In this document: positions 15,956 to 40,804 of the stretch, in pieces
Layout of the letters: each line of letters starts with the position of its first letter
How positions within the stretch are numbered: the first letter of the stretch is position 1
Assembly (NCBI GenBank): GCA_964242575.1
Contig: CAXTCN010000012.1
Coordinates: 3,204-67,203 of the forward strand
Direction: 5' to 3'
Length of the DNA: 64,000 nt
Origin: an uncultured Acetobacteraceae bacterium
GTDB taxonomy: Bacteria > Pseudomonadota > Alphaproteobacteria > Acetobacterales > Acetobacteraceae
Position numbers and translations under genes: made by a program
Notes under the pieces: model-generated
Told to the model about the DNA's origin: nothing
Seen by the model: only the letters and a program-made list of their open reading frames with translations
Databases searched by the model: none

Positions 15956-15958
15956 GAA

Positions 15959-18781: not shown

Positions 18782-18792
18782 GGGGCATCGGC

Positions 18793-20264: not shown

Positions 20265-20365
20265 GGCGCAAGTGGGCGGACGGCCGTCATGCGATAGATG
20301 ATCCGGTGCCTGCACAATCATAAGTTGCTGTCGCAAAAGTTCGTCAGCAGCTTGACAATTCCGAG

Positions 20366-24496: not shown

Positions 24497-24583
24497 TATC
24501 AGAATGGCGCGCAACGCGCCGCCCTGTAGCGTGGGGCCGAGCACGGTGCGTAGGACATTGTCGCTGGGATTGTTGTTGGCCAT
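24446..24583 (-). CDS. Possible 45-aa membrane peptide
   Basis: Below the track cutoff. ATG at 24583 is preceded by GAAGGAA. MANNNPSDNVLRTVLGPTLQGGALRAILILAGFSFLGAVVAWLVR. Overlaps the 3' end of the large ORF by 51 nt. Confidence 0.3.
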   Translation of the reverse strand: MANNNPSDNVLRTVLGPTLQGGALRAILILAGFSFLGAVVAWLVR

Positions 24584-24744
24584 CGGGAATTCCTTCTGCG
24601 AACGCTGGATACAGGCCGCCGCGCCGGTTGTGAAGCGCAGCGCCCATGCAGCATTAACGCTTTAGCAAGCTATCCCTTGTAGGTTTAGCTGGACCAAGGT
24701 GATACACAAAGCCAGGTTCGGAACACGGGGTGCGACAACCGGCC

Positions 24745-25608
24745 ATGCGGATCGCGGCGCTGACGATGGTTTACAACGAGCCGCTGTGGGCCAAGGCGTG
24801 GGCGCGGCACTATGCGGCGGAGCTGGGGGCGGAGCATTGCGTGATGCTCGACCATGGCTCCGACGACGGCAGCACGGCGGCGGACCGGTTGGGCGCGCCG
24901 GTGCGGGTGGAGCGGCTGCACCGGTCGCCGTTGGATGAGGAGTGGCGGCTGCGGGTGGTGACGGCGCGGGTGCGGGGGTTGCTGCGCGAGTACGACGCGG
25001 TGTTCCACTCGGACGTGGACGAGCTGCTGGTCGCGGACCCGGCGCGCTATGCCGGCCTGCGCGCGTTGGCGGAGGGCACAACCGCGCCGGTGCTGACGGC
25101 GGTGGGGCTGGACGTGCAGCACATGCCGGACGAGGCGGCGCTGGACCCTGGGCGGCCGGTGGGCGCGCAGCGGAGCTGGGTGCGGTTTTCGGCGGCGATG
25201 TGCAAGCCGGCGCTGGTGCGCCATCCCGTCGCGTGGTGCCCGGGGTTCCACAGCAGCGACGCGGACTTGATTTTCGATGGGTTGTACCTGTTGCATATGC
25301 GCTATGCGGATTTGGACGCCGGGCTGCTGCGGCTGGCGCGGACGCGGGGCCAGGCGTTCGCCGGGCCGGAGGTGGCGGTGCACCAGCGGGTGACGGACAC
25401 GGAGTTTGCGGCGATGATGCGCGCCATCGCCGGCCTGCCGCGGGGGACAGGCGAGCTTGACCCGGCCGCTGCGCCGTTGGCGCCCTGGCTCGACCGGCTG
25501 CGGCAGTCGCGCGCGGCGCGGGAGACGGAGCGGTTCAAGCTGGACTTGGCGCTGTCCGGCAACGAGCTTTGGCAGGCTGGCCGGCTGTTGCGGGCGGTGC
25601 GCGGCTAG
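24745..25608 (+). CDS. Glycosyltransferase family 2-like protein
   Basis: MRIAALTMVYNEPLW...VMLDHGSDDGS...FHSDVDELL is a GT-A-type N-terminus with a DxD motif. Confidence 0.6.
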   Translation: MRIAALTMVYNEPLWAKAWARHYAAELGAEHCVMLDHGSDDGSTAADRLGAPVRVERLHRSPLDEEWRLRVVTARVRGLLREYDAVFHSDVDELLVADPARYAGLRALAEGTTAPVLTAVGLDVQHMPDEAALDPGRPVGAQRSWVRFSAAMCKPALVRHPVAWCPGFHSSDADLIFDGLYLLHMRYADLDAGLLRLARTRGQAFAGPEVAVHQRVTDTEFAAMMRAIAGLPRGTGELDPAAAPLAPWLDRLRQSRAARETERFKLDLALSGNELWQAGRLLRAVRG

Positions 25609-26123
25609 GCGCGAGGGCAATGCCGCACCATGTCATGACGCACGACGTATGGGGATTGGGGATGACGGAGCGCAATACTCGGGCACGGGCGGTGGCGATC
25701 GCGTTGCGGCGGCAACGGCCGGACCCCGCGCCGTGGTGGATGTGGGCGGTGCTGGCGGTGGGCTTGTCGTTGGCGGCGGCGTCGTCGGCACGGGCGCAGC
25801 CGGCGGTGCCGGGGACCGGGCCGGGCGCGCAGCCCATCCCGGAGGTGGTGCGGCCCGGCGCGCCGACCTTGCCGCCGGGCGCAGGCGGGGACACCGGCCT
25901 GACGCAGCCCAGGAGCGAGACGCCGTCCGTGCCGGGCACCGGCGATGCGGCGCGGCCGGTGCCGGACGCGGGCGTGGTCGCGCCGGTGCCGCGCGGGACG
26001 ATCACGCCGCCGGCGGGCGCGGGCGGCGACACTCCGGTGATCCGGCCGCCATCGGCCAGCACGATGCCGGTGATCCGGCCGCCGGGCAGCCCGGGCGGCA
26101 ATCCGGACGTGGTGCCGAAGTAG
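25569..26123 (+). CDS. Pro/Gly-rich secreted or anchored protein
   Basis: Hydrophobic anchor WWMWAVLAVGLSLAAASSARA, then repeated PPGAGGDTG / PVIRPP strings. Start is uncertain. Confidence 0.4.
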   Translation: MAGWPAVAGGARLGARAMPHHVMTHDVWGLGMTERNTRARAVAIALRRQRPDPAPWWMWAVLAVGLSLAAASSARAQPAVPGTGPGAQPIPEVVRPGAPTLPPGAGGDTGLTQPRSETPSVPGTGDAARPVPDAGVVAPVPRGTITPPAGAGGDTPVIRPPSASTMPVIRPPGSPGGNPDVVPK

Positions 26124-26130
26124 GGCCGCG

Positions 26131-26481
26131 TCAGCGCGCCGGCGCAGCCAGGGCAAACGTGCAACGGGGGGTCACGTACTCCCCGGTCGCGGCCTCGCGC
26201 GTCCACTTGGCATTAAGCCGGGTCGTATAGGGCTGGCGGTCCGCGCCCCGGACGGTGCGCTCCGCGGTGATGGCGCCGTCGGCGGTGGCGGTGCCCTTGA
26301 GGGTCCATGTGCCCTCGTCCGGGTTGAACACCACCGCGCCGTCACGCAGCACCAGGGTCGCTTGGCTGGCGCGGCAGGCGGCGGAGGGTGCTGCGGGCGT
26401 CAGCGTGCCGATGAAGCGCATCGACGGCGTGGCCGGGGTGGCGCAGGCGGAAAGCAGCAGCAGCGGGAGCATCGGGCGCAT
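26131..26481 (-). CDS. Small lipoprotein
   Basis: Internal ATG 26481: MRPMLPLLLLSAC lipobox. Confidence 0.55.
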   Translation of the reverse strand: MRPMLPLLLLSACATPATPSMRFIGTLTPAAPSAACRASQATLVLRDGAVVFNPDEGTWTLKGTATADGAITAERTVRGADRQPYTTRLNAKWTREAATGEYVTPRCTFALAAPAR

Positions 26482-26644
26482 CGCGGCGGCATAGCGCGGG
26501 CGTGCCGGGCCGGCCAGCGTTAACGTTCGTGCAAGCTTTGCGCGGTATCCCTCATGCAGGCAGTGAACAAGGAACGTCATGCGACAGGGTGCGTTGGCTG
26601 GTGGAAGCGGCCGCAAGCGGGCCGGGCGCTAACGGGGGGCTGGG

Positions 26645-27451
26645 ATGCGGGTGCACCATCTGAACTGCGGGGCGATGCAGCCGTTGGGCGGCGTGCTGTT
26701 CGACGGGGTGACGCGCGGCCTCGGCCCGGCGACGCTGGCGTGCCACTGCCTGCTGCTGGAAAGCGCGTCCGGGCTGGTGCTGGTGGACACAGGCGTGGTG
26801 GGACAGGACGCGCGGCAGTCCCGGGAGGCGCACCATCCGGCGTTCCTGGCGGTGGACAACCCGCGGCTCGACCCGGCCGAAAGCGCCGCGGCGCAAGTGC
26901 GGGCGCTGGGGTTCCGCACCGAGGACGTGCGGCACGTCGTCATGACGCACCTGGACTTCGACCATGCCGCCGGGCTGGTGGATTTTCCTGGCGCGACGGT
27001 CCACCTGTCGGTCCAGGAGGCGGCGGCGGCGCGGCGGCCGGACGGGGCGAAGGCGCGCGCCCGCTACCGGCCGAAGCAGTGGGGCGCCATGGAGCGGTGG
27101 AAGGCCTGGGACTTCGACCGAACCTGGTTCGGACTGCCGGCAGTCGAGGCTTTGGGGGCGGAGCTGTTGCTGGTGAGCCTGCCGGGGCACACGCCGGGCC
27201 ACTGCGGGGTGGCGGTGCGGGACGGCGGCCGGTGGCTGCTGCACGCGGGGGACGCGGTGTTCTTCCGGCGGGAACTGGATGCCGCGCCATCGATGCCGAC
27301 GGGCGCGCGGGGCTACCAATGGTTCATGGAGACCAGCCAGCGCGACCGGCGGCGCTCGGTGCGGGCATTGCGGGGGCTGGTGGCGGAGCACGGGGACGAC
27401 GTGCGGGTGGTGTGCACGCACGACCCGCTGCTGGTGGACGCAGGGGTTTGA
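26645..27451 (+). CDS. MBL-fold metallo-hydrolase
   Basis: HVVMTHLDFDHAAG (HxDxDH variant) and LPGHTPGH. Confidence 0.8.
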   Translation: MRVHHLNCGAMQPLGGVLFDGVTRGLGPATLACHCLLLESASGLVLVDTGVVGQDARQSREAHHPAFLAVDNPRLDPAESAAAQVRALGFRTEDVRHVVMTHLDFDHAAGLVDFPGATVHLSVQEAAAARRPDGAKARARYRPKQWGAMERWKAWDFDRTWFGLPAVEALGAELLLVSLPGHTPGHCGVAVRDGGRWLLHAGDAVFFRRELDAAPSMPTGARGYQWFMETSQRDRRRSVRALRGLVAEHGDDVRVVCTHDPLLVDAGV

Positions 27452-27810
27452 TGGTGCGGTTGATAATGCCCGCGTTGCTCGCGGCGCTGCTGGCGGCGCC
27501 GGTTTCCGCGCGGGCGCAAACCATCCCGGTCCCGAGCGACACCCGGGCCAGCTACACCGTGCTGCAACTGACGCCGCGGCCGGACGGGCTGGTGGAGCTG
27601 CTGAACCAGCGGGTCGGCCCGTCCGGCACCAGCTTCGCGCGCCGCGAGGTGGACTGCCGCAACAACCAGTTCCGTTTCCTGGGCGACGGCGAGACGTTGG
27701 AGCAGGCCCAGCGCCCGTTGAAGGTGCCGCAGGTCAGCCAGCGGTTGATTAAGGACACGGTGCAGTGGGACGTGTTCCGCTTCGTGTGCGATGGCGGTGC
27801 GCCGCGGTGA
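27451..27810 (+). CDS. Small secreted protein
   Basis: ATG 27451 overlaps the previous TGA. Signal peptide MVRLIMPALLAALLAAPVSARA. Confidence 0.5.
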   Translation: MVRLIMPALLAALLAAPVSARAQTIPVPSDTRASYTVLQLTPRPDGLVELLNQRVGPSGTSFARREVDCRNNQFRFLGDGETLEQAQRPLKVPQVSQRLIKDTVQWDVFRFVCDGGAPR

Positions 27811-27928
27811 CGCGGCGGGCCGCGTTTAGGCGGGAGTACTGGGCGTAGGAAAAAATGCAAAAGCTATACTTTCCACAATCAAACAAGTAAGTGCACTATG
27901 AGCAGCCTTGTTCATTTGAGCTTGTCAT

Positions 27929-28948
27929 ATGGCGAGGTTGCCGGGTCAAGTAACACTGACTTTGGCTTGGCTCCTGGCTTTTCAAGGAAAGAGCGAGAGA
28001 GGAGTTTACTTGGTATTGTGCGCTTATGTGGATGATAGCGGTCGAGGAAATAAGCCCGTCTTCGTTTTAGCAGGACTTCTTGCTGATACCGCTTCCTGGG
28101 CCAGGTTTTCCGACGATTGAGATGAAGAACTAAAGAAAGAGCCGTTCAAAAGATACAGCAAAATGCAAGAGTATATGCGGCTTGATATATGGGATGATCC
28201 GACATCGCCGCAAAGGTTAGCAAAGCTTTATGCACTTCAAAGCATTATGAACAAACACGTAGAATGCGGATTTTCAATTTCGTTTCTCAGTGGCGATTAC
28301 AGGGAAATCTTCAAAGAGGCAGTTCCAAAACTCTGGCGTTCGGAATATCACTTTGCTGTTAGAGCTTTCATTTCTGAACTTCTTAATCACGAATACGAAA
28401 GCGGGCGAACGAGTAAGATCGACTTCATTTTCGATGAGCAGACTAACGAGAGCGCCGCTGTTGAGATTTCATGGAAGCGTCTAAAGCAAGGCGGTGCCTC
28501 GAGTAGATTTAGGAGAAGGATGGGATCTATCACTTACGGGTCCGACCAACACCTTAGGCCCCTTCAAGCTGCAGATATGATGGCTTGGCTATCTAGAAGG
28601 ATGTCTGCTGACATGCTTGGGGATGCCGGACAACTCTGGCCTGAAAACGCAGGTGAGCCACTTTACGATGCCAGAATTCTTAACATGGGGAACCCGAAAA
28701 TGGTTCTGGAGGCGATCCAGGCAGGGGACGGAACCCCCGCAGACGCGCATGCCATGGCTCTTAGGTTGTCCTCTAAAGCTTGGCACGCAGGGCGCGGCCT
28801 AAACATACCCATGAGAAACAGGTTTATCGATCGCGAGCAGCTGGAGATGCACCGAAACCGCTTAGTGGCAGCGGGTGAGCTTGTGCTCAAGCCAGATACA
28901 CCGCGCCTAACTAGGCGCCAGCGCAAGCAATTATCTCAAAATCAATGA
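27929..28948 (+). pseudogene. DUF3800-like gene interrupted by one in-frame TGA
   Basis: Track ORFs 27929..28120 and 28163..28948 are in the same frame, and the only interruption is the TGA at 28118-28120. The N-terminus LCAYVDDSGRG...VFVLAG is the DUF3800 signature. The AT-rich islet sits directly upstream of the terminase genes. Confidence 0.6.
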
Positions 28949-29185
28949 TTGTTTCCGAACTGTTTAGAGATAGTACAGGCAAATGCTCTCTCAGATTTTT
29001 AGCCGTTTCTCTCAAAGTAATCCTTGGTATCCGCCCCAAGTAAGACTATGCCTTCCAGTAGCGTGTAGGGTCGTGGTGCGCGCCAATACGCCGTTCCAAC
29101 CCTGGTTACAACGATAGTAACGAACGCGCGCTGTCCAGTACAGCGCCGGGTTCTGCACGCTGAATATGCAAGTCACGGAGGCCCC

Positions 29186-29404
29186 ATGCCGACGCCGCTG
29201 GAAGTGCTGCTGCGCGTGATGAACCGGAAATGGACGGAGGGGGACGAGGACGGGGCGGTGCAGTTGGCCAAGGCCGCCGCGCCGTATGTCCACCCGCGGG
29301 CGGCGGCGCGGGGGTCAGTGGATTTGGCGGAAGTGGGGGACGATGAGCTGGAACGGATGCACGGCGGCGACGGAGCGGGCGCTGCGGAGGGACCTCCGGA
29401 CTAG
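29186..29404 (+). CDS. Short terminase small-subunit-like protein
   Basis: GGAGG RBS. PLEVLLRVMN...AAKAAAPYVHPR resembles the C-terminal motif of small terminase subunits of alphaproteobacterial phages. Only 72 aa, overlapping the TerL start. Confidence 0.35.
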   Translation: MPTPLEVLLRVMNRKWTEGDEDGAVQLAKAAAPYVHPRAAARGSVDLAEVGDDELERMHGGDGAGAAEGPPD

Positions 29405-30740
29405 CTTCGCGCGCTGGGCCGGGTTCGCGTTGGCGCCGCTGGGCCAGGCGCCGGCGCGGCACCACCGGCTGATGATCCAGGAGCTTGAGGCGGTGGCGCG
29501 CGGGGATTGCGACCGGCTGATGCTGCTGATGCCGCCTGGTTCGGCCAAAAGCACCTACGCCAGCCTGCTGTTCCCGCCGTGGTTCATGGCCCGGCAACCT
29601 GGCGCGCAAGTCATCGCCGTGAGCCATACGGCGGCGCTCGCGGAGGCGTTCGGGCGCGGGGTGCGCGGGGCCGTCACGCAGCACGGCGCGCGGCTGGGCG
29701 TGCGGCTGGACGGCGCAAGCCGGGCGGCGGGGCGGTTCGGGACATCGGGCGGCGGCGGCTATTACGCGACCGGGGTGCGCGGGCCGGTGACCGGGCGCCG
29801 GGCGGATTTGCTGCTGATCGACGACCCGGTGAAGTCCCAGGCGGAGGCCGACAGCGCGCCCCTGCGGGACCGGGCGTGGGACTGGTATCGCTCGGACCTG
29901 GTGACGCGACTGCGTCCCGGCGGGCGGATCGTGCTGGTGATGACGCGCTGGCACCCGGACGACCTCGGCGGACGGCTGCTGGAGGCGGCCGAGCTGGGCG
30001 GGGAGCCGTGGCGCGTGGTGCGCCTGCCGGCGCTGGCGGAGGGCGCCGACGCGCTGGGCCGCGCCCCCGGCGAGGCGCTGTGGCCGGAGTGGGAGGGCGT
30101 GGCCGCGCTGGAACGGAAGCGCCTGGCGGTCGGCGAGCGGGCGTTCGAGGCGCTGTTCCAGCAAAACCCGCGCGTGCCCGGCGGACGGCTGTTCCAGGTC
30201 GGGCGCATGGCAGTGGCGGACCAGCCGGCGGAGGGCGTGAGCGTGCGGGCCTGGGATTTGGCCGCGAGCGCCGGCGGCGACTGGACCGCCGGCGTGCGCC
30301 TGGCGCGCGGCGACGCGGGCGCGTGGCAGGTGCGCGACGTGGTGCGGCTGCGCGGCGGCCCGGAGGACGTGGTGCAGGCCATCCTGCGCACCGCCGAGCG
30401 GGACGGCGCCGGCGTCGCCATCGGCTTGCCGCAGGACCCCGGGCAGGCCGGGCGCAGCCAGGTCGCGTTCCTGACGCGGGCGCTGGCGGGCTGGCGGGTC
30501 ATCAGCGGGCCGGAAAGCGGGGCCAAGGCGACGCGGGCCATGCCGGTCGCGAGCCAGGCGAACGCGGGCAACGTCAGCGTGTTGCGCGCCCCGTGGAACC
30601 GAGCTTTCCTGGAGGAGTTGCAGGACTTCCCGGGCGGCGCGAAGGACGACCAGGTGGACGCCCTGGCGCGGGCGTTCGGGATGCTGCTGGAGGCGCGGAC
30701 GCCGGCGCAGGTGCGGCGGATGGACTGGGGGTTGCGGTGA
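29343..30740 (+). CDS. terL: Terminase large subunit
   Basis: Walker A LMPPGSAKST, Walker B ADLLLIDDPVKS, coupling motif VMTRWHPDDL, and C-terminal nuclease DDQVDAL. Confidence 0.9.
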   Translation: MSWNGCTAATERALRRDLRTSFARWAGFALAPLGQAPARHHRLMIQELEAVARGDCDRLMLLMPPGSAKSTYASLLFPPWFMARQPGAQVIAVSHTAALAEAFGRGVRGAVTQHGARLGVRLDGASRAAGRFGTSGGGGYYATGVRGPVTGRRADLLLIDDPVKSQAEADSAPLRDRAWDWYRSDLVTRLRPGGRIVLVMTRWHPDDLGGRLLEAAELGGEPWRVVRLPALAEGADALGRAPGEALWPEWEGVAALERKRLAVGERAFEALFQQNPRVPGGRLFQVGRMAVADQPAEGVSVRAWDLAASAGGDWTAGVRLARGDAGAWQVRDVVRLRGGPEDVVQAILRTAERDGAGVAIGLPQDPGQAGRSQVAFLTRALAGWRVISGPESGAKATRAMPVASQANAGNVSVLRAPWNRAFLEELQDFPGGAKDDQVDALARAFGMLLEARTPAQVRRMDWGLR

Positions 30741-31712
30741 ATGCGGCGTCGGGCGTTGCTGCTGGGCGTGCTGGCGGCGGGGTGCGCGGGGGATGGCCCG
30801 GGCGTCGCCGCGGACATTGAGGCGGCGGCGGACACGGAGCTGCGGCGGCGTCCCGCGTTCTACGTGAACGGCGAGGCGCGGGGCTGGCTGGTGCGGCGCG
30901 ATGGCCATGAGGCCGGGCTGCTGTGGGGCACCTGGCATGTGGCATACGACGACGCCACGGTGATGCCGCGCGCCGTGCGGGCGCGGTTCAACGCCAGCGC
31001 CAGCCTTACGGTCGAGCGGCTGCTGTCGCGCTCGCAGTACGCGGCGCTGCGCGGCGCGCAGGAGGGCGCAGTGCGGCGTCCGGACCCGTCGGCGCTGTCC
31101 CGGCTGGGCGCGGAAACCTTGGCGGCGCTGGCGGAGGCCGGGGTGGACGCGGGCGACGCCGGGCTGAGCCTGCTGGGCTTGGCGGAGGCGGTCAGCGCCA
31201 ACGCCATGACGGAGCCGGCGCCCATGCTGCCGCACACGGGCATCGTGGACGCCAACCTGGTCGGGTTCGCGCAGAGCATCGGCGTCCCGGTGCGGGCGCT
31301 GGAGGCCGAGGACGGCTACGTTGACCCTTTATATCAAGAGCCGAACGGCCCGGCCGCGGCGGCTCTGCTGCGCCAGGTGCTGCGTCAGGGCCAGGACGCG
31401 CGGGCGTTCCGTCGCGCGCTGCGCTCGTTGTACGCGGCCGGCCGGGTGGACCGCGTGCTGGCCGCGACGGTGGGCTGGCGGGCGGAACCGGCGGACCTGG
31501 CGCGCGACGACGCGGCGCGCGACGGCCTGTTGACCCGGCGCAACCTCGCCTGGCTGCCGGGGCTGGAGCGGACGTTGCGGGAGGACGGGTTCCACTTCGT
31601 GGCGTTCGGCGCCGGGCACTTGATGGGGGATGACGGGGTGGTGGCGCTGTTGCGCGGGCGCGGGTGGGACGTGGCGGCGTGCGTGGCGGATCGGTGCGGG
31701 TTGCCAGCGTGA
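30741..31712 (+). CDS. TraB/GumN-family lipoprotein (cargo)
   Basis: Lipobox LLGVLAAGCAG. ...LLWGTWHV... and ...FVAFGAGHLMGDDGVVALLRGRGWDV are GumN-family end motifs. The ATG abuts the TerL stop (TGAATG). Confidence 0.65.
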   Translation: MRRRALLLGVLAAGCAGDGPGVAADIEAAADTELRRRPAFYVNGEARGWLVRRDGHEAGLLWGTWHVAYDDATVMPRAVRARFNASASLTVERLLSRSQYAALRGAQEGAVRRPDPSALSRLGAETLAALAEAGVDAGDAGLSLLGLAEAVSANAMTEPAPMLPHTGIVDANLVGFAQSIGVPVRALEAEDGYVDPLYQEPNGPAAAALLRQVLRQGQDARAFRRALRSLYAAGRVDRVLAATVGWRAEPADLARDDAARDGLLTRRNLAWLPGLERTLREDGFHFVAFGAGHLMGDDGVVALLRGRGWDVAACVADRCGLPA

Positions 31713-31861
31713 TGGCTTTGGGGGTGATGGGGCTTTGCTCCTGAAGCACTGTTGCCTGTATGCACGGTTTGAAGTGAACAGTTATTCTGAGCGACGCTGA
31801 CGCCCTGACGTCTGCTGGCTTATGGCGGAGATGCAAAGCGAAGCAGGCTGTCGCCAAGATT

Positions 31862-32206
31862 ATGGTGGATGATCGTGAGAATTGCCGCGAGGCATGGGTT
31901 GCGGCAGGGTTCGGCGTGGAGTTTGCCTTGAAGGCGTTAATTCTCAAGCGTGAGAGATTGAACGCGTGGCCTTCGCTGGAGCATCGCCCAGACCTCCATA
32001 TCCATAACCTCAAAAAGCTGTTCAAGATCGCGGGGCTTGATCCGAACGCCGCTCCGACAGACGTGAAGCCAGCGATCCGGCAGGTTTTGGATTGGAACCG
32101 GAATCACGACTATGTGGCCAGGCCGATGCCGCGTAAGGTGGCCCGGTCGATGGTTGAGGCGGCGTTCGGGCCTTCGGGGGTGGTGGAGTGGTTGAAGTCT
32201 CTTTGA
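31862..32206 (+). CDS. Small helical protein, HEPN-like pattern (weak)
   Basis: GFGVEFALKALILKRE...HNLKKLFKIAG...WNRNHDYVARP follows the HEPN helix pattern, but no clear Rx4-6H motif is present. The frame is open upstream to 31778 without a canonical start. Confidence 0.4.
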   Translation: MVDDRENCREAWVAAGFGVEFALKALILKRERLNAWPSLEHRPDLHIHNLKKLFKIAGLDPNAAPTDVKPAIRQVLDWNRNHDYVARPMPRKVARSMVEAAFGPSGVVEWLKSL

Positions 32207-32721
32207 CCTTGGACCCAAAGATCAGCGCCGCCGCCGAACGCGCGCTTGACAGCCGGCGCATGCAAGCCGGCAAGGAGTATCTGGACGCGCTGCATCGGCT
32301 GGGCCTTGAGCCGGATGTGTTTTGCTGGATTTACGACGCAGTCGAGGACGGGATTGAACTTGCCATTGTTACGTCCATCGCAGAGCGTATTGGCAGCCTG
32401 GACATCTACAAGCTCTTGTTCCGTGCTTATGAGGCTGCGGCGACGCCACGCGACATAGACCCGTTTATTGTATCCATCTATGGTCCCAACTCGTTCTATG
32501 GTGCCATGCTGCGCGAGCACATTCGCACTCTGGCGGCAGACGGAGCGTTCTCCGATCCTGGAAACGCCACGCGGTTCACGACAGTCATGGAAAACTCGGC
32601 CGAGCTTAAAGTCATGCTTGCCCGAGGTGTGTATGCGAGGGGAGACACTCGCAGGTCAGCAGCCCAAGATTTGAAGAGATGGAGCCGTTTTAAGCAGAAC
32701 GTGGAAGCGCTGGCTGCGTGA
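32188..32721 (+). CDS. Hypothetical protein coupled to the preceding gene
   Basis: GTG 32188 or TTG 32203 (TTGA overlap with the upstream stop). 170-177 aa with no recognised motif. Confidence 0.45.
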   Translation: MVEVSLTLDPKISAAAERALDSRRMQAGKEYLDALHRLGLEPDVFCWIYDAVEDGIELAIVTSIAERIGSLDIYKLLFRAYEAAATPRDIDPFIVSIYGPNSFYGAMLREHIRTLAADGAFSDPGNATRFTTVMENSAELKVMLARGVYARGDTRRSAAQDLKRWSRFKQNVEALAA

Positions 32722-32959
32722 AGGCGGCTTTCTCAAAGTATTGACAATCGAGGCGCCTGGCCGTGCGGCCAGTGGTCCTTTCCAACCCGCGACGCCGGAT
32801 GCGCCAGCGCCGCACCCGTAGCGGCTCGGCGCAGTGCCCTTATCTGGCATCCGGCGACAGTATGGTCGTGTGCGGCGCGTGCGCGCGACCACTGTGGGTT
32901 GCTGGCATTACGGTACGGCCGGCAGGCTGTTTCGGAACCACTTTCAGGCAGATGGATTG

Positions 32960-33574
32960 ATGGCGTCACGCCGGGATTACAAGGCTGCACTAAGCAATCT
33001 CCACAGGCTCCGACGAGTTGGGCCGGGCACCATGCCGCTGTTCAAGCAGCTACATCAGTGGATTCAATCTCTTGACGTGCATCATAGCGATGACCGAGAG
33101 GCAACGTTGATTGCGTTTACCTTCCTGGAACAGTCTCTTGAGATTCTGCTGTTGCAGCATTGGAGTCTGGTGGGGTCAGAACGAGGTTCGAAGCTATTTA
33201 ATTCGGCTGGTGAGCGGGATGCGGTGCTAGGTTCTGCATATTCTCGGGCCCTAATGGCAGAGTGTTTGGGATTGATAAGCAATAATACCTTCAAAGACGT
33301 ACAAACTGTAAACTTTATTAGGAACACATTTGCCCACTCAGGACACTCGATTAATTACGGTAATGATGATATTGAGACTTTATCCCACCTGAATACGATG
33401 GGCCAGTTTGGAGAAAGACACACAATAACGCTTGAGAATGGGTCTGCTCTGTTCAATCTTAATCTGAGTACTGCCAGGTCGCGTATTTTCTCCTTTATTC
33501 TGTTCTTTTCTCTTTACTGCACAGTCTCCCCTGCTGACGACGGTGAAAAGCCGTTTAAGTCTGTGTTCTCTTAA
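32960..33574 (+). CDS. MtlR-like HEPN-domain protein
   Basis: AVLGSAYSRALMAECLGLISNNTFKDVQTVNFIRNTFAHS matches the MtlR/HEPN helix pair, including R-N-x-x-A-H (Rx4H). ATG 32960 is chosen within track ORF 32834..33574. Confidence 0.6.
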   Translation: MASRRDYKAALSNLHRLRRVGPGTMPLFKQLHQWIQSLDVHHSDDREATLIAFTFLEQSLEILLLQHWSLVGSERGSKLFNSAGERDAVLGSAYSRALMAECLGLISNNTFKDVQTVNFIRNTFAHSGHSINYGNDDIETLSHLNTMGQFGERHTITLENGSALFNLNLSTARSRIFSFILFFSLYCTVSPADDGEKPFKSVFS

Positions 33575-33650
33575 GATAGCCCTAGCCAACGCGCCGGGCA
33601 CTTCCCCGTGGTCGCAAGCGGCAACCAAGGCGGCAGCAGCGGCAGAGTGC

Positions 33651-33929
33651 TCAGGAGGACGCCGCCGCGGATGGAGGTTGCCCGAACCCGAACACACCAA
33701 AGAAGCTGGCGCGATGCGCAGCCAGCCACGCCGGCGCGGCATGGCCCAGCGTGCCGGTGATCACCGACCGGTCAAGCGTCGCGATCTTGTCGAAACGCAC
33801 GACGGACGGCACCTTGAGGCCGGTGTCGGCAGTGGCGGCAATGGGCGCGGTGCCAGGCCCGGCACGCGGCACGGACGTGATGAAGCATACCACAGGGTCC
33901 GAACGCCCATCGTTGTCACGCGACACCAC
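33651..33929 (-). CDS. PemK/MazF-family toxin; conserved N-terminus lies upstream of the first canonical start
   Basis: ...VVSRDNDGRSDPVVCFITSV...GLKVPSVVRFDKIATLDRSVITGTLG is MazF-like. The preceding in-frame codons encode GSIVLARFPFTDLSGDKRRPAR. Confidence 0.65.
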   Translation of the reverse strand: MVSRDNDGRSDPVVCFITSVPRAGPGTAPIAATADTGLKVPSVVRFDKIATLDRSVITGTLGHAAPAWLAAHRASFFGVFGFGQPPSAAASS

Positions 33930-34007
33930 CCGGGCCGGACGGCGCTTGTCGCCCGACAGATCGGTGAACGGGAACCGCGCCAGGACGATGCTGCCGAACG
34001 CGCACGC

Positions 34008-34229
34008 CTACCAGCCCGGCCTCATCAAGTCGGCGTCAGTATAAAGGTCAGGCTCCTCAGCCAGCCAGTCGAACGCGCCGCCGGCCTGCGCCAAGGCCGC
34101 CATGGGCAAATCCGCGTCACCGATTACCTCCACCAGCACATGCACCCGCGTGCCGGCGGCGATGCCGCGGCGGACCAGTTCGGCCGAGACCTGTCCGGCC
34201 TCGGCGTCAAGCGCGATCTTCTGCATCAA
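34008..34229 (-). CDS. Putative antitoxin of the MazF-like gene
   Basis: 73-aa acidic ORF immediately upstream, ending ...FDWLAEEPDLYTDADL. Confidence 0.5.
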   Translation of the reverse strand: MMQKIALDAEAGQVSAELVRRGIAAGTRVHVLVEVIGDADLPMAALAQAGGAFDWLAEEPDLYTDADLMRPGW

Positions 34230-34383
34230 GCCGTCTCCCTCTCAACACCCAACCTACTCCGGCCAAGCCGCTCCTGTCCGCCCTGATGTGCGCAACAGGC
34301 GATGCGCGACGTTCGTAAGAAAACAATCCTTGCCCCGCAACCCCACAAAGTCCATGCCATCCCGATAGAATGCCGGGGGGCGC

Positions 34384-35766
34384 ATGTTCCAAACCATCTG
34401 CGACACGATACCGCGCGACCCGGACGCCTCCGCCCGAGCGCGCCGGCTGGAACTGATGGGGCAGGTGCTGGACGGCACCCTGTATGACGCCCTGCCGCAC
34501 GAGTTCCATGAGGAACGCTCGGCGTCCGGCGAGTACATCCCGCTGCGGCGCAGGCGCCCGTCGGTGCGGTACGCCCTGGCGCGCGTGGTGGTGGAGGACA
34601 GCGTGGCGCTGCTGTTCAGCGCCGGGCACTTCCCGGTGGTCGCCAGCGATAACGAGGCGGTGCGGGACGCCCTGTTGGCGCTGGGGCGGGAGTGCCGGTT
34701 GAACCGGGTGATGACCGACGCGGCCATCCGCGGCAGCGTCGGCTCGGTCGCCATCCTGATGCGCGTGCTGCAAGGCCGGGTGTTCCTGGACGTGCTGGAC
34801 ACGGCCTGGCTGGTCCCGGCGTGGGAGCCGGACGCGCCGGACGTGCTGGCGCGCGTGGTGGAGCGCTACAAGGTGCCGGGCGCCGAACTCGCGGCGGCGG
34901 GCTACGCCGTTGCGGACCCGGCCGCCGCGTACTGGTTCCAGCGGGAATGGGACACCGAGCACGAAACCTGGTTCCATCCGCACGCCGTGGGCGCGTCGGA
35001 TGCGCCGCAGCGGGACCGGGGGCGCAGCGTGCGGCACGGCCTGGGGTTCGTGCCGGTGGCGTGGATACGCAACCTGCCCGGCGGCATCGCCCCCGACGGC
35101 GCATGCACGTTCCGCGCGGCGGTCGAGACCGGGATCGAGATCGACTACCAGCTCAGCCAAGCCGGGCGGGGCCTCAAGTACTCGAGCGACCCTACGCTGC
35201 TCATCAAGGAACCCGCCGGCATCGAGGGCGAGCTGGTGCGCGGCGCGGGCAACGCCCTGGTGGTGGGGGAAAAGGGCGACGCGCGCCTGCTGGAGATCGG
35301 CGGCACAGCCGCTGCGGCGGTGCTGGACTACGTGCGGACGCTGCGGGAGCTGGCGCTGGAGGGCGTGCACGGCAACCGCGCGGACGCGAGCCGGCTGACC
35401 GCGCAGTCCGGCCGGGCGATGGAGATGATGAACCAGGGCCTGGTGTGGCTCGCGGACCAACTGCGCGTCAGTTACGGCGAGGGGCTGCTGCAACTGTGCC
35501 GGATGATGCTGCGGGCCGGCGCGCGCTATCCGCTGCGGGTGGGCGGCGCGCTGGTCGGGCCGCTGGATGCCGAGGCCGGGCTGAGCCTGGTGTGGCCGCC
35601 CTGGTACCCCGCCACCAGCGAGGACCGGGCGCGGGACGCGGGCACGGTCATTGCACTGGTGGAGGCCGGGCGCATGAGCGAGGCGACGGCGCTGCGATTG
35701 TTGGCGGCGGACTGGGGTTTCGACCCGGCTGCCGAGGCTAAACGCTTGGAAGGGAACGCGAAATGA
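34384..35766 (+). CDS. Putative portal protein
   Basis: 460 aa, the first large morphogenesis-size ORF after terminase, with a 4-nt overlap with the scaffold-like gene. Assigned by position and size only. Confidence 0.55.
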   Translation: MFQTICDTIPRDPDASARARRLELMGQVLDGTLYDALPHEFHEERSASGEYIPLRRRRPSVRYALARVVVEDSVALLFSAGHFPVVASDNEAVRDALLALGRECRLNRVMTDAAIRGSVGSVAILMRVLQGRVFLDVLDTAWLVPAWEPDAPDVLARVVERYKVPGAELAAAGYAVADPAAAYWFQREWDTEHETWFHPHAVGASDAPQRDRGRSVRHGLGFVPVAWIRNLPGGIAPDGACTFRAAVETGIEIDYQLSQAGRGLKYSSDPTLLIKEPAGIEGELVRGAGNALVVGEKGDARLLEIGGTAAAAVLDYVRTLRELALEGVHGNRADASRLTAQSGRAMEMMNQGLVWLADQLRVSYGEGLLQLCRMMLRAGARYPLRVGGALVGPLDAEAGLSLVWPPWYPATSEDRARDAGTVIALVEAGRMSEATALRLLAADWGFDPAAEAKRLEGNAK

Positions 35767-36128
35767 GCAACGAGAACGAGATTGAAGTCGAAGCCGAGGT
35801 GCCGGCGGAGGTGCTGGCGTTGCGTGCGCGCCTGGTGCAGGCCGAGTTGCGCACGGAGGCGGTGCGGGCGGGCATCGTGGACCTGGACGGGGTGAAGCTG
35901 CTGGACGCGACCGGGCTGTCGTTGAACGCGGCCGGGGAGCTGGAGGGCGGGCCTGCGTTGATCGCCGGGCTGCGGGCCTCGAAGCCGTGGCTGTTCGGCC
36001 GCAGCAGCAGCAGCGCGTCGGTGGCGCCGCGGGCCACGCCGCCCAAGCCGCGCCTGGCGACGGAGATGAGCCTGGAGGAGTGGCGGGCCGCGCGGGCGGA
36101 GTTGTTGCGCCGGGGCCGCGTCATCTAA
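35763..36128 (+). CDS. Putative scaffolding protein
   Basis: Acidic N-terminus, coiled-coil LALRARLVQAELRTEAVRAG, basic C-terminus. Sits between portal and capsid. Confidence 0.5.
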   Translation: MSNENEIEVEAEVPAEVLALRARLVQAELRTEAVRAGIVDLDGVKLLDATGLSLNAAGELEGGPALIAGLRASKPWLFGRSSSSASVAPRATPPKPRLATEMSLEEWRAARAELLRRGRVI

Positions 36129-36184
36129 ACCATTCCTTAACCTTCCGGGCGCATCCTGACACCAGGAAGCAGCGGTCTGCGGTT

Positions 36185-37921
36185 ATGGACGGTGGGATGG
36201 CAACAAAGGTCGGGCAGCGTCTGGAGGCGTGGGACAAGGCGGCGGACTTGCAGGCGCAAGTGCGCCTGCGGGACCGCGCGCTGGACAAGCTGCGCCAGGG
36301 CCTGTGCGTGTTCGACGGGCAACGGCGGCTGCTGCTGTTCAACAAGCGTTACGCGGAGATGTACAGCCTGCGGCCGGAGGACCTGTGGGTCGGCATGACG
36401 CTCACGCAGGTCACGGATTTGCGGGACGCGGCGGGCACCGGGCCAGACATGCTGATGGAGGAGTACTTGGCCTGGCGGAACCGCATCCAGGTCACGGTTG
36501 GCATGACCGAGACCGTCGTCACGCTGCGCAACGGCGACGTGCACGAAATCCATCATGAGCCGACGCCGGACGGCGGCTGGGTGGCGACGTTCGACGACAT
36601 CACCGAGCGGCGCCGGAGCGAGCGGCGCATCCAGCACATGGCGCACCACGACGCGCTGACTGGCTTGCCGAACCGGGCGCTGTTCGCGGAGCGGCTGGCC
36701 CGCATGGTGGAGCGTCTGGGCCGGGCCGACCCGCTGGTGGCGGTGCTGTGCCTGGACCTCGACCGGTTCAAGGAGGTGAACGACATGCTCGGGCACCCGG
36801 CCGGGGACCTGCTGCTGCGGCAGGTGTCGGAGCGGATGCGCCACGAGGTGCGGCAGGCGGACACGCTGGCGCGGCTGGGCGGGGACGAGTTCGCGGTGAT
36901 ATTGCACGCGCTGACGGCGCCCGCGGAGGCCGCCAAGTTCGCGGACCGCATCATCGCCGCGCTGTCGGCGCCGTTCGACCTTGAGGTGCAAACGGTGACG
37001 ATCGGCGTCAGCATCGGCATCGCGCTGTGTTCCGGCGGCGAGCGGCGGCTGGACCCGGACCACGTGCTGCGCTGCGCGGACACGGCGCTGTACCGGGCCA
37101 AGGCGGAGGGGCGGAACGGCTACCGGTTCTTCCAGCCCGGCATGGACCGGCGGCTGCAACAGCGCCGCTCCGTGGAACGCGACCTGCGGCAGGCGCTGGC
37201 GACGGGCCAGTTCACGCTGCACTACCAGCCGCAATTCGACCTCGTGACCCGGCGCATGACCGGCGTCGAGGCGCTGCTGCGCTGGCCGCACCCGGAGCGC
37301 GGCATGGTCCCGCCGACTGAGTTCATCCCGGTGTGCGAGGAAACCGGGCTGATCGTGCCGGTGGGCGCGTGGGCGCTGCGGACCGCGTGCGCGCAGGCGG
37401 CGCAGTGGCCCGGCATCAGGCTCGCGGTGAACCTGTCGCCGGTGCAGGTGCGCGGCAACGGGTTGGTGGACCTGGTGGCGGAGGTGCTGCGGGACACCGG
37501 CCTGGCGCCGGGCCTGCTGGACCTGGAAATCACCGAGGGCCTGCTATTGCAGGACACGGAGCAGGTGCTGGAGACGCTGCGTGGGATCCGCGCGCTGGGC
37601 GTGGGGATCGTGCTGGACGATTTCGGGACGGGGTATTCGAGCCTCAGCTACTTGCGGCGGTTCCCGTTCGACAAGCTGAAGATCGACCGCGGGTTCGTGG
37701 CGAACGTCACGGACGACGTGGGCGACGCGGCCATCGTGCAGGCGGTGGCGACGCTGGGCCGCGCGCTCGGGATGCGGGTGAACGCGGAGGGGATCGAGAC
37801 GCCGGGGCAGCTTGCGCGCTTGCAGGCGCTGGGGTGCGACGAGGGCCAGGGCTACTTGCTGGGCCGGCCGGCGGCGGCGGCGGATTTGGATGTGACGGAG
37901 CGCCTGGGTTTGCTGGGGTAG
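36185..37921 (+). CDS. PAS-GGDEF-EAL protein (diguanylate cyclase/phosphodiesterase), cargo
   Basis: RQADTLARLGGDEFAV carries the I-site RxxD plus GGDEF. EAL domain motifs are EALLRW, NLSPVQ, EITE, DDFGTGYSSLSYL, KIDRGFV, AEGIE and QGYLLGRP. ATG 36185; the upstream part of track ORF 35987 overlaps the scaffold gene and is discarded. Confidence 0.9.
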   Translation: MDGGMATKVGQRLEAWDKAADLQAQVRLRDRALDKLRQGLCVFDGQRRLLLFNKRYAEMYSLRPEDLWVGMTLTQVTDLRDAAGTGPDMLMEEYLAWRNRIQVTVGMTETVVTLRNGDVHEIHHEPTPDGGWVATFDDITERRRSERRIQHMAHHDALTGLPNRALFAERLARMVERLGRADPLVAVLCLDLDRFKEVNDMLGHPAGDLLLRQVSERMRHEVRQADTLARLGGDEFAVILHALTAPAEAAKFADRIIAALSAPFDLEVQTVTIGVSIGIALCSGGERRLDPDHVLRCADTALYRAKAEGRNGYRFFQPGMDRRLQQRRSVERDLRQALATGQFTLHYQPQFDLVTRRMTGVEALLRWPHPERGMVPPTEFIPVCEETGLIVPVGAWALRTACAQAAQWPGIRLAVNLSPVQVRGNGLVDLVAEVLRDTGLAPGLLDLEITEGLLLQDTEQVLETLRGIRALGVGIVLDDFGTGYSSLSYLRRFPFDKLKIDRGFVANVTDDVGDAAIVQAVATLGRALGMRVNAEGIETPGQLARLQALGCDEGQGYLLGRPAAAADLDVTERLGLLG

Positions 37922-37985
37922 GGCGTGTTGCGGACCTGGCGTGCGGTTGTGATTGCTTGAGCGGCGAACGGTCGCCTATCGACCC
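37817..37985 (+). repeat. Direct repeat copy A (3' end of EAL gene plus 64 bp downstream)
   Basis: Aligns with 38557..38722 over its full length with one 3-bp indel. Confidence 0.85.
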
Positions 37986-38045
37986 ACCGCGGATGTCCCG
38001 CGCTTTGGATTGCACACCTGCACGGATCGTGTTCAGCTTTGCAGC

Positions 38046-38471
38046 ATGTTCCGAGAAGCGGCGTGCCAGTGCGGACAGCTCGTGATCCGCTGCAGCGGCG
38101 AGCCGGCCGGTGTGTCGCTTTGCCACTGCTTCGATTGCCAGCGCCGAACGGGCTCGGCCTTCGGCATCGGAGCCTTCTTCGCCAGGGAACAGGTCACGGT
38201 CTCGAAGGGGTCGTCGAACCGGTTTAGGCGAGGGTCTGACAGCGGCTCGGAAATCACGGCCCACTTCTGCGGAGCCTGTGGATCGACGGTGTGGTGGGAG
38301 CCTGAGCGTTTCCCGTCAATGGTGGGCGTCGCGGTCGGCGCGTTCGCGGACCCGGACTTTCCCACGCCGGTGCAAGCCACCTGGGACAAGCGACGGCACC
38401 GGTGGCTGCAGCTTCCAGATGAGGTCGTCAGCCACCCGCAAAGCACTGTGCGGGTGGCGCCGCGCGAATGA
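38046..38471 (+). CDS. GFA-family (glutathione-dependent formaldehyde-activating/CENP-V-like) zinc protein
   Basis: CQCGQ...CHCFDCQRRTGSAF...HFCGACGSTVWWE cysteine pattern. Confidence 0.8.
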   Translation: MFREAACQCGQLVIRCSGEPAGVSLCHCFDCQRRTGSAFGIGAFFAREQVTVSKGSSNRFRRGSDSGSEITAHFCGACGSTVWWEPERFPSMVGVAVGAFADPDFPTPVQATWDKRRHRWLQLPDEVVSHPQSTVRVAPRE

Positions 38472-38556
38472 CCGCCAGCCACCACGGGCGGCGGTTCACA
38501 TTCTAAGCGAGCACAGCCACGGGCAGGGTCCATAACGCCCTGAAAGGCCAGTTTCG

Positions 38557-38722
38557 CGCCTGCAGGCGCTGGGGTGCGACGAGGGCCAGGGCTACTTGCT
38601 GGGCCGACCGGCGGCGGCGGATTTGGACGTGACGGAGCGCCTGGGCCTGTTGGGCTAGAGGGTGTTGCGGACCTCGCCTGCGGTTGCGGCGGCTCAGGCG
38701 GCTAACGGTCGCCTATCGACCC
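38557..38722 (+). repeat. Direct repeat copy B: orphan 3' fragment of an EAL gene
   Basis: Encodes RLQALGCDEGQGYLLGRPAAADLDVTERLGLLG-stop with no upstream EAL domain. Confidence 0.85.
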
Positions 38723-38741
38723 CTAAGAAGTGCGGCTCCGA

Positions 38742-38972
38742 TCAGCGGCCCAGCTTGAGCCTGGTTTCAGCCCTCGCCAACAACTCCTCAAACAACTCGG
38801 TCGCAGTTTCTATGTTGATTTCTTCGTCTTCGTCGGCTGGTTGGTAGTGTTTGAGCTGGCTTATGACGCCTTTGCAGCGACGAATGACGCTTTGCATGTC
38901 CGTTTCCCTGCGAGCACCTTCATACAAAGACAACGCCTGCTCGACGAACAGCGAAAATCCTGGCCTCGGCAA
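38742..38972 (-). CDS. Hypothetical small protein (antisense cargo)
   Basis: 76-aa ORF in an AT-richer patch. Confidence 0.4.
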   Translation of the reverse strand: MPRPGFSLFVEQALSLYEGARRETDMQSVIRRCKGVISQLKHYQPADEDEEINIETATELFEELLARAETRLKLGR

Positions 38973-38986
38973 CCCCTACACTTGCT

Positions 38987-39175
38987 TCAAGACTTTGCTG
39001 TTTCCTTGAGTTCCAGGCCGACTGGTTTTGCGAGGAGGCGTTCAACAAACGGGTTTATCTCTGTTTCCTGACTTCCCCTTTCGCGCAGCTTCCGTGCGGC
39101 AATTCGCCGGAACGCATCCTCGCCGCTTTCGGTCATCGACTTTCGTTCGTCGAACATGAGCGACTTAAAAGACAT
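38987..39175 (-). CDS. Hypothetical small protein (antisense cargo)
   Basis: Internal ATG 39175: MSFKSLMFDERKSMTESGEDAFRRIAARKLRERG... Confidence 0.35.
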   Translation of the reverse strand: MSFKSLMFDERKSMTESGEDAFRRIAARKLRERGSQETEINPFVERLLAKPVGLELKETAKS

Positions 39176-39481
39176 CGTCACCTCCGCTGTGAACAATACT
39201 CCGAACAGCGTGGAGGTGCTACCTCGCTGGCCGGCGAGGCCTGCTTCCCCGCACAGCTTCTCCGAAGCGGACCGGCTGCTCCCCATTACAGGCGGCGGCT
39301 CATAGTCTAGGAGGGCGTCGCCGGCAGGGAAAAAATTCCTTGACCGCGCGCCCCACGAAGTCGATACCTTTTACCCATGATGGCGGCCCCCGCGATGCGG
39401 ATGGGCCGGCGTCGACCGGGACGATTAACCCGGCGTGGCCCCAGGGCTGCGCCGGGCTTCATGCGTTTGTGGGGTTTATTC

Positions 39482-40804
39482 ATGGGCATCCAAAACTTTC
39501 CGGCCATTCTCCAACCGATCATCCAACAGGGCTTCCTGGAGCGGGAGTTCCAGCAGGCCATGCACTCGCGGCTGGGGTACCGGGCCTGCGCGGACCGGCA
39601 GGAGTTCGCGGTCGGCATCGGCGAGACGCTGACCAAGACACGGGCCGGGCTGAAGGCGGCGGTGACGACGCCGATGCCGCCGGCCACCAACACCAACTTC
39701 GACAACGGCCTGACGCCGACCGGGTGGGGGGTGGAGCAGTACACGCTGACCATCAACCACTACGCCGCCACGACGGACCTTAATATGGTGACCTCGCGGG
39801 TCGGCATCCAGGGCCAGTTCCTGCAGAACGCCGCCATCAACGGCGAGCAGGCGGCGCGTTCCCTGGACGAATTGGCGCGCAACGCGTTGTTCGCGCCGTA
39901 TTTCGGCGGCAACACGCGGGTGCGGACGGCGCTCGGCACGGCCGGGCCGGTGGTGGCGGTCGATGACTTGCGCGGGTTCATGACGGCGTTCGTGAACGGG
40001 GTGCAGGGTCCGGTCGGCGGCGTCACGAGCCTCACCATCACGCTCAGCGCCGGGGTGTATCAGGTGGTCGGCACCACGGCGGACGCGACCAGCGTCAGCC
40101 TCACGCCCGGCGGCGTGTCGGGCACGCTCACGCTGTCGAGCAACGCCAGCGTGTCGGACGCGGCGCTGAATAGCCCGGTGCAGTCGTCCAACGCCAGCGT
40201 GGTGATCCGGCCCGGTGGGCGCGGCACGACGGCGGCGTTGCAGGCGGGCGACACGCTCAGCATCGGCTCCCTGTTGGACGCCGTGAGCAAGCTGCGGCTG
40301 AACGCGGTGCCGGAAATCGACGGCGCTTACAACTGCTACCTCGACCCCGTGAGCGCGCGGCAACTGTTCTCGGACGGGGATTTCCGCCAGTTGTTCCAAG
40401 GCTCCATCGGCGCGAACCAAGTGTTCCAGCAGGGAATGGTCAACGATTTCCTGGGGTTGCGCTTTGTATCCACCACGGAGGCTTACGTGCAGCCGCATCC
40501 GTCGCTCGCGGGCGTGGTGGTGCGGCGTCCGCTCGTGGTCGGCCAGGGCGCGCTCATTGAGGGCGACTTCGCCGGCATGGCCGCCAGCGACATCGCGCCG
40601 CGCGACAGCCTGGTGAGCGTGGTGGACGGGATCGCGATGGTGACGCGGGAGCCGATGGACCGGTTGCAGCAGATCATCGCGCAAAGCTGGTACTGGATCG
40701 GCGGCTTCTGCGCGCCGAGCGACACGCTGACCAACCCGAGCGTGGTGCCGACCGCGACCAACGCGGCGTTCAAGCGGGCGGTGATGATCGAGCACGTGGG
40801 GTAA
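39482..40804 (+). CDS. Putative major capsid protein
   Basis: 440 aa from ATG 39482, following the scaffold-like gene. No Cys, and a balanced composition typical of capsid proteins. Confidence 0.6.
   Translation: MGIQNFPAILQPIIQQGFLEREFQQAMHSRLGYRACADRQEFAVGIGETLTKTRAGLKAAVTTPMPPATNTNFDNGLTPTGWGVEQYTLTINHYAATTDLNMVTSRVGIQGQFLQNAAINGEQAARSLDELARNALFAPYFGGNTRVRTALGTAGPVVAVDDLRGFMTAFVNGVQGPVGGVTSLTITLSAGVYQVVGTTADATSVSLTPGGVSGTLTLSSNASVSDAALNSPVQSSNASVVIRPGGRGTTAALQAGDTLSIGSLLDAVSKLRLNAVPEIDGAYNCYLDPVSARQLFSDGDFRQLFQGSIGANQVFQQGMVNDFLGLRFVSTTEAYVQPHPSLAGVVVRRPLVVGQGALIEGDFAGMAASDIAPRDSLVSVVDGIAMVTREPMDRLQQIIAQSWYWIGGFCAPSDTLTNPSVVPTATNAAFKRAVMIEHVG

Follow-up and report, generated by a model that had tools for sequence, protein, structure and literature searches.

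Six non-structural open reading frames (ORFs) lie between the large terminase (TerL) gene and the portal gene of a myovirus-type prophage in an uncultured Acetobacteraceae bacterium, which raises the question of whether this position is a dedicated slot for phage defence or a place where unrelated cargo has settled. The prophage was found in a stretch of 64,000 nucleotides (contig CAXTCN010000012.1 of assembly GCA_964242575.1), which in its full length is referred to here as the window. The GC content of the window is 69%, and Pfam and PHROG matches identified 29.2–60.0 kb as the late region of the prophage. An earlier sequence-only reading had put the TerL stop at 30740 and the portal start at 34384, and had counted six non-morphogenetic genes in between; the coordinates are exact, and six ORFs do fill the interval of 3,643 bp (30741–34383), hereafter the islet. 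On balance, we consider the islet to be probably a mosaic of accessory (moron-type) cargo, in which a HEPN-fold gene and its partner would have a toxin-antitoxin or abortive-infection role, a stand-alone HEPN protein (p204) would be HepS-like, and a MazEF-like pair would provide an antitoxin only. The islet and its flanking genes are arranged as follows.

29286–30740 (+): TerL, left flank; PHROG 38 at 5.3e-95, Pfam Terminase_6N and 6C
30741–31712 (+): TraB/PrgY/GumN-family protein, 323 amino acids (aa); Pfam PF01963
31787–32206 (+): p139, basic (isoelectric point, pI, 9.7) HEPN-fold protein, by fold search of an AlphaFold model
32188–32721 (+): p177, acidic (pI 5.5) 177-aa partner; 19-nt overlap with the HEPN-fold gene
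32960–33574 (+): p204, stand-alone MtlR-type HEPN protein, 204 aa; motif I-R121-N-T-F-A-H126
33651–34007 (−): MazF/PemK-type toxin frame, 118 codons; Pfam PemK_toxin
34008–34226 (−): antitoxin-like 72-aa partner, acidic (pI 4.2); Roseomonas plasmids have the same gene directly ahead of their toxin gene
34384–35766 (+): portal, right flank; PHROG 145 at 1.2e-10

Both flanks have clear phage relatives. Among phages, Acetobacter phage phiAO1 has the TerL nearest to that of the window (49% identity). The portal shares 52% identity over 99% of its length (E 1e-132) with the annotated portals of Ralstonia phages Hyacinthe and Raharianne, both of the genus Rahariannevirus, and its closest relatives (identity up to 66%) belong to prophages of Acidiphilium, Acidocella, and other Acetobacteraceae genomes. 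The late structural genes beside the islet are full length.

Composition of the islet

The GC content changes in steps along the islet, from 0.757 in the GumN gene to 0.586 and 0.573 in the HEPN-fold/p177 pair, 0.472 in the solo HEPN gene, and 0.69 and 0.68 in the MazEF-like pair, with 0.762 in TerL and 0.725 in the portal gene on either side. Three compositional blocks had been described previously; we found four (GC 0.757, 0.58, 0.47, and 0.68). Because the blocks differ in GC and because the HEPN-fold/p177 pair travels without the other genes, the six genes do not make up one system, and on compositional grounds the islet is better taken as four separately acquired modules. At least four separate insertions would thus have taken place at the TerL–portal junction of this myovirus-type prophage in an Acetobacteraceae (Roseomonas-like) chromosome, and the resulting modules would be functionally independent of each other. 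The junction may have been tolerated as an insertion point because its flanking genes presumably need no shared regulatory sequence. Intergenic spacers within the islet measure 150–240 bp. A repeat search over the islet returned chance-level short repeats only, with no att-like or insertion sequence ends, and no tRNA genes were detected within the window. NCBIfam gave nothing relevant on the islet genes, and Rfam had no match over 27.5–39.5 kb.

The first module is a gene of host-like composition (GC at third codon positions, 0.92). Its assignment to the GumN family in the sequence-only reading is upheld by Pfam, in which the protein matched PF01963 with 103.3 bits (cut-off 26.8; 2.7e-29) over profile positions 3–261 of 263. 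The N-terminus (MRRRALLLGVLAAG followed by C) is a probable lipoprotein signal, its putative lipobox being read directly from the sequence. No conflict role is assigned to this protein in the mechanism proposed here.

A HEPN-fold gene and its partner move together among phages

The two genes of the second module were found together in all loci that hold the first. A p177 homologue (18 were found) lies directly after a p139 homologue in 12/12 loci from six independent lineages, the called genes overlap by 4–25 nt across these loci, and every locus with informative flanks has a phage-like context. Specifically, in L084, an unrelated phage contig, the pair (7597–8501) follows a Terminase_6 TerL at a distance of a few small genes, and in L102, an IMG/VR contig, it (7249–8180) immediately precedes a tail sheath gene; in both contigs it is placed among phage late genes. 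In L093, it comes after genes for tail proteins and a lysozyme, and in L091 it is close to a D5_N primase. Further copies are rare (one IMG/VR contig and two metagenome loci). Judged from this gene order, the pair is a unit that moves among phage genomes and is, by its overlaps, translationally coupled.

The first gene of the pair had been called HEPN-like, with a product of 114 aa. The first canonical start in the window (ATG 31862) would indeed give 114 aa, but the family alignment shows homologues of 139–140 aa, and the 25 extra residues are encoded in frame from 31787 in the window, shortly after an in-frame stop at 31775. The HEPN-like call itself holds at the level of the fold. The AlphaFold model of the 139-aa form has a pLDDT of 92.8, and the top five PDB matches in Foldseek were all HEPN proteins (TM 0.46–0.70, probability 0.98–1.0); ST0689 (1wol) and TT1696 (1ufb) matched best (TM 0.6–0.7), and 4nqf and 2hsb were also among the top matches. 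Only the fold search succeeded here, since the family profile of p139 had no match to PDB sequences. With regard to Pfam, weak matches to PF05168 were obtained for 6/28 family members (best E 0.0021), and p139 of the window had no match to PF05168 and did not reach its gathering score. K49, H73, R105, and Y109 do not vary across the aligned family and E45 hardly varies, which gives an E45-x3-K49 motif.

The partner, p177, was modelled with a pLDDT of 88.4 and a pTM of 0.85, and its model had no fold match in Foldseek searches of the PDB and BFVD (all E > 0.01, TM < 0.3). It also had no match in the family libraries (Pfam, PHROG, NCBIfam, and PADLOC). We considered p177 as a minimal nucleotidyltransferase (MNT) and rejected this, as GS/DxD motifs are absent from the family alignment and there is neither a fold match nor a Pfam match.

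We propose that the pair would work as a toxin-antitoxin or abortive-infection module, in which the basic HEPN-fold protein would be an RNA-directed effector. The effector would be kept scarce by a weak TTG start, or by the still weaker CTG in the window, and the acidic p177, made through translational coupling, would neutralise or regulate it. To the extent of the libraries at hand, a HEPN-fold protein without the canonical motif, paired with a non-MNT partner of unmatched fold, is a candidate for an undescribed combination.

A stand-alone MtlR-type HEPN protein

The third module consists of the p204 gene alone. It had been taken for an ORF of 246 aa; its only close homologue (72% identity) begins at ATG 32960 inside that ORF, which makes the real product 204 aa long. 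A HMMER scan of 1.84 billion representatives returned 924 relatives at E <= 1e-3, most of them 170–220 aa in length. Among 42 aligned representatives of the family, R121, N122, and H126 are the sole invariant columns, and in p204 of the window the Rx4-6H motif is present, its arginine being followed by a polar residue. The family profile matched MtlR structures (PDB 6kcr at 4.7e-8 and 3brj at 9e-6), and Pfam matches among the 42 members were to MtlR (PF05068; 20 members), DUF4145 (7), and HEPN_RiboL-PSP (4). The window protein alone stayed below threshold against PF05068 (13.9 bits; cut-off 25.2). Together, the family profile and the invariant residues bear out the previous description of p204 as an MtlR-type HEPN protein with an Rx4H motif. 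MtlR has been placed in the HEPN superfamily, and members of the superfamily that keep the motif were predicted to be active RNases (Anantharaman et al., PMC3710099).

By analogy with HepS and Tha, p204 would form a dimer or tetramer in which paired RNxxxH motifs build a composite RNase site; it would be inactive until triggered and would then cleave tRNA or rRNA. The gene was probably acquired recently because its GC is only 0.47. A homologue with 41% identity (P0021) stands alone beside metabolic genes, and a p204 homologue was never seen next to the HEPN-fold/p177 pair among the 12 loci of the latter. We also considered p139 and p204 as paralogues; their profile-profile comparison was not significant and gave this no support. 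A prophage-borne solo HEPN protein belonging to the MtlR clade is, by the libraries at hand, a candidate for an undescribed type.

The pair and p204 share their strand with the late operon, and the pair lies inside the structural gene clusters of several unrelated phages. This can suggest that these genes benefit the phage itself, as HEPN takeover or counter-defence RNases expressed in lytic growth, with the partner as an immunity protein. However, within each lineage the modules occur rarely and can be dispensed with, and their foreign GC and the 150–240 bp spacers suggest independent expression units. We consider this explanation highly unlikely.

A MazEF-like pair without a toxin start

The fourth module, on the opposite strand, had been described as a MazF-type toxin with a small acidic partner. 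Both components were found: the conceptual translation of the toxin frame (117 aa) matched PF02452 with 43.1 bits (cut-off 23.1; 5.4e-11) over profile positions 3–96 of 109, and it is 74–79% identical to MazF proteins of Roseomonas plasmids. The 92-aa MazF ORF considered previously is only the tail of this frame of 118 codons, the start of which is GCG. DNA alignment showed that, in the Roseomonas plasmids, the TAG stop of the 72-aa gene is followed by an in-frame ATG or GTG of the toxin. The window has TAG-GCG where its homologues have TAG-ATG or TAG-GTG, so that the start codon of the toxin is lost. The next canonical in-frame start, GTG 33929, would drop 26 residues including the first strand; the remainder of the frame is intact. 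The description of a MazF pair thus stands as to the domain and the partner, but not as to a translatable toxin gene adjoining the antitoxin, which the window does not contain.

It is most likely, on the basis of these codons, that the MazF toxin is not made and that its gene is a probable pseudogene. The antitoxin-like gene seems to be intact and keeps both its ATG start and a Shine-Dalgarno sequence (GGGAG); its 72-aa product had no match in Pfam, NCBIfam, or PADLOC. The remnant would now provide the antitoxin only.

The TerL–portal junction in related phages

We compared the junction in 51 related loci holding both TerL and portal, for which gene ends were extrapolated from tblastn alignments. 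The estimated spacing was at most 213 bp in 48/51 loci (median 32), and the two genes are likewise adjacent in Ralstonia phage Hyacinthe and Komagataeibacter phage phiKX1. The gap in the window is thus unusual for the lineage. Inserts were found in three relatives (L011, L021, and L028); in order of size, these measure 1.1, 1.8, and 3.9 kb. Those of L011 and L028 encode PEP-CTERM proteins, and that of L021 holds a zinc metallopeptidase (Peptidase_Mx) gene, an ORF of 349 aa without identification, and degraded sequence. Homologues of the six islet genes were present in none of 83 related loci, and the islet is thus private to this element.

Two side observations concern these relatives. In L021, positions 6100–7500 are degraded and without long ORFs, and a fragment there ('...DEVRRIRNDVMHFDPDG') is a remnant of a HEPN-type RNxxxH motif. 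In phiAO1 (L001), genes for a sulfurtransferase, a peroxiredoxin, and a Cu-Zn superoxide dismutase occupy 3752–6918, between the terminase and the next large (457-aa) gene.

The sequence-only reading had proposed the islet as a candidate defence hotspot. Extended to the whole lineage, this would be a dedicated and recurrently exchanged anti-phage slot, similar to the hotspots of P2 and P4. The conserved flanks with different inserts in the window and in L011, L021, and L028 are what such a slot would show, as is the different cargo of phiAO1 right after its terminase gene, and the content of the window is rich in HEPN and toxin-antitoxin genes. However, the junction is empty in 48/51 relatives, so that occupation (3/51) falls well short of a large share of related elements. 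The identifiable cargo of the relatives (PEP-CTERM proteins, a zinc metallopeptidase, and the redox enzymes of phiAO1) comprises no known defence genes, and PADLOC was blank on the islet of the window; the cargo is thus not enriched in recognised defence systems. We therefore consider a lineage-wide defence hotspot highly unlikely. The previous proposal of a defence hotspot is weakly supported, in that the junction does take up cargo that differs among elements, but only rarely. As far as these comparisons go, a permissive moron site describes the junction better than a defence hotspot does. Nonetheless, the cargo of the window islet is mostly of conflict type by its predicted products, namely two HEPN-fold proteins and a MazEF remnant.

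Further insertions in the same prophage

The islet is one of three expanded positions. The interval between the portal and capsid genes is 3,610 bp in the window compared with a median of ~510 bp in 74 relatives. Upstream of the late region, a PHROG 6836 gene (12094–12843) lies 16.3 kb from the TerS-like ORF in the window and ~0.6 kb from it in L008, L013, and L016; in L046, the PHROG 6836 gene likewise lies upstream of TerL. The prophage spans at least 1.9–60 kb with ~23 kb of cargo, while its phage relatives measure 46 kb in total, and more than one expanded junction was seen in no relative.

Three expanded junctions in an oversized element suggest that the prophage was freed from the limit of capsid capacity, i.e., that it may be grounded or domesticated. 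This would fit its closest TerL relative, phiAO1, which has no integrase and is classed as an incomplete prophage, yet formed particles (PMC8566455). Because the same prophage has two further large insertions, the islet may mirror a relaxed size constraint and not a selected hotspot.

Decay or attenuation

Several of our results weigh against the functions proposed for the islet, and the arguments above need to be read with these in mind. The functions of the islet genes are predictions only. PADLOC 2.0, run on the six islet proteins, recognised none of them, and among the 42 relatives of p204 it gave sporadic generic HEPN matches only. A scan for sigma-70 promoters and terminators performed no better than on shuffled sequence. 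The p139 genes of L088 and L100 begin with TTG, and the window has CTG 31787 in its place; in addition, p139 has no Rx4-6H motif (position 107 varies among H, Q, and R, and its spacing is wrong). With neither a canonical start at the family position nor such a motif, p139 may be made in small amounts or may lack catalytic activity. Given the missing motif, the effector could use another site (H73, R105, and Y109) or act without catalysis; non-catalytic or other-site action was suggested for motif-less HEPN proteins (Anantharaman et al., PMC3710099). Together with the lost start codon of MazF, there are start lesions in two of the three toxin-type genes, a pattern that fits decay as well as attenuation.

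It is conceivable that decay and accretion explain the islet entirely, in a dead prophage collecting neutral junk and selfish addiction modules, with HEPN and MazF genes becoming pseudogenes. This would be consistent with the three junctions expanded by ~23 kb in total, a combination absent from the relatives, with the lost MazF start, with the CTG where the HEPN-fold family has a start codon, and with the insert of L021, which is visibly degraded and includes a HEPN motif fragment. On the other hand, the start codons aside, the frames of the window are intact, and comparison with homologues of 72–79% identity showed neither frameshifts nor stops. In p204, the start is ATG, the motif is complete, and the GC is very foreign (0.47), which indicates a recent arrival and not a long decay, and the late structural genes at the flanks of the islet are full length. 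We regard decay alone as unlikely, and the mosaic of accessory cargo, parts of it possibly still functional, remains the explanation that we favour.

Neighbouring genes and side observations

The remaining features of the prophage that were used for orientation are the following.

10926–12167: primase/helicase-type gene
29186–29404: small TerS-like ORF, 72 aa, upstream of TerL
35763–36128: scaffold-like gene, late region
39377–40804: major head protein gene, late region
within 29.2–60.0 kb: tail sheath, baseplate, and fibre genes, late region
59509–60030: GH108 endolysin gene, late region

The 72-aa ORF before TerL was considered as a truncated small terminase; this was rejected, as relatives share a small ORF of 83–90 aa. 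In the betaproteobacterial relatives (L002 and L054–L083), the portal is 47–56% identical to that of the window, and their TerL was not detected by the window TerL at E 1e-5. This indicates that TerL was probably exchanged mosaically relative to the portal/head module.

The second islet (36129–39376, 3.2 kb) lies between the scaffold-like and head genes and carries a PAS-GGDEF-EAL gene (~36185–37921), a GFA-family gene (37953–38471), and ~0.9 kb of sequence with GC 0.60 and no clear gene. Among the relatives, the portal–capsid junction exceeds 1.5 kb in 6/74. The block at 12844–29185 forms a third, larger interruption of the same prophage. It includes host-like genes (glycosyltransferases, an esterase, a major facilitator superfamily transporter, and a metallo-beta-lactamase fold) as well as genes of lower GC, namely one for a TPR protein of 1,376 aa and a DUF3800 gene. 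The latter (28163–28948, GC 0.50) immediately precedes the TerS-like ORF and TerL and had no PHROG or PADLOC match. A gene for an 848-aa superfamily 1 (SF1) helicase (AAA_11/AAA_12) occupies 60556–63102 on the minus strand, next after the GH108 endolysin gene, where the late region ends on the right. It may be a further gene of accessory or defence type at the edge of the prophage.

Comparison with known systems

Prophage cargo islets with HEPN and toxin-antitoxin genes are well known, and the finding as a whole is ordinary in this respect. At the same time, accessory islets of prophages have proved to be a source of new anti-phage systems, and the HEPN-fold/p177 pair and the HepS-like p204 are reasonable but unproven candidates for defence or toxin-antitoxin functions. 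It is possible, if short of likely, that the islet holds two undescribed anti-phage modules, with the pair as a new and rare phage-borne two-gene toxin-antitoxin or abortive-infection system built on a HEPN protein without the canonical site and on a neutralising or sensing partner whose fold would have no counterpart in PDB or BFVD, and p204 as a HepS-like sensor-effector of the MtlR clade.

The islet resembles the hotspots of P2 and P4 (PMC9122126) in that cargo of foreign GC, which varies among relatives, is set between conserved core genes of the phage. It differs in that the junction is seldom occupied (3/51) and the cargo of the relatives looks non-defensive. Junctions of the packaging/head operon in this lineage would thus hold occasional cargo and be unreliable as defence hotspots, and mining them blindly would yield mostly ordinary host genes.

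The MazEF-like pair is close to the MazEF/PemIK pairs of Roseomonas plasmids, with 74–79% protein identity, the same 72-aa upstream partner, and a stop codon abutting the toxin start in frame. In contrast, the toxin start in the window is GCG, and the antitoxin alone looks expressible.

The HEPN-fold/p177 pair shares with the HEPN-MNT (HepT/MntA) systems of type II/VII a small PF05168-like HEPN fold, an overlapping two-gene operon, and a basic predicted toxin with an acidic partner. Unlike in those systems, p177 is not a minimal nucleotidyltransferase (it lacks a fold match and GS/DxD motifs), the window pair has the HEPN gene first, and p139 lacks Rx4-6H and conserves only E-x3-K, H73, R105, and Y109. 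An active pair would contribute a HEPN module whose partner is not an MNT and has an unmatched fold, and whose active site is non-canonical.

Solo HEPN proteins of prophages that act in abortive-infection defence have been reported as HepS of Gifsy-1 (PMC13043305) and Tha of Staphylococcus aureus prophages (PMC11087260). With these, p204 has in common that it is stand-alone, ~200 aa long, equipped with an RNxxxH motif, and in an accessory position of a prophage. The p204 family profile aligned with HepS (9oij) over the helix-plus-motif region ('kI..A.aLGl......IRN.fAH'), but this match is weak and borderline (E 0.095), and MtlR repressor structures match better. If p204 is active, the solo-HEPN defences represented by HepS and Tha would be extended to the MtlR clade and to Alphaproteobacteria.

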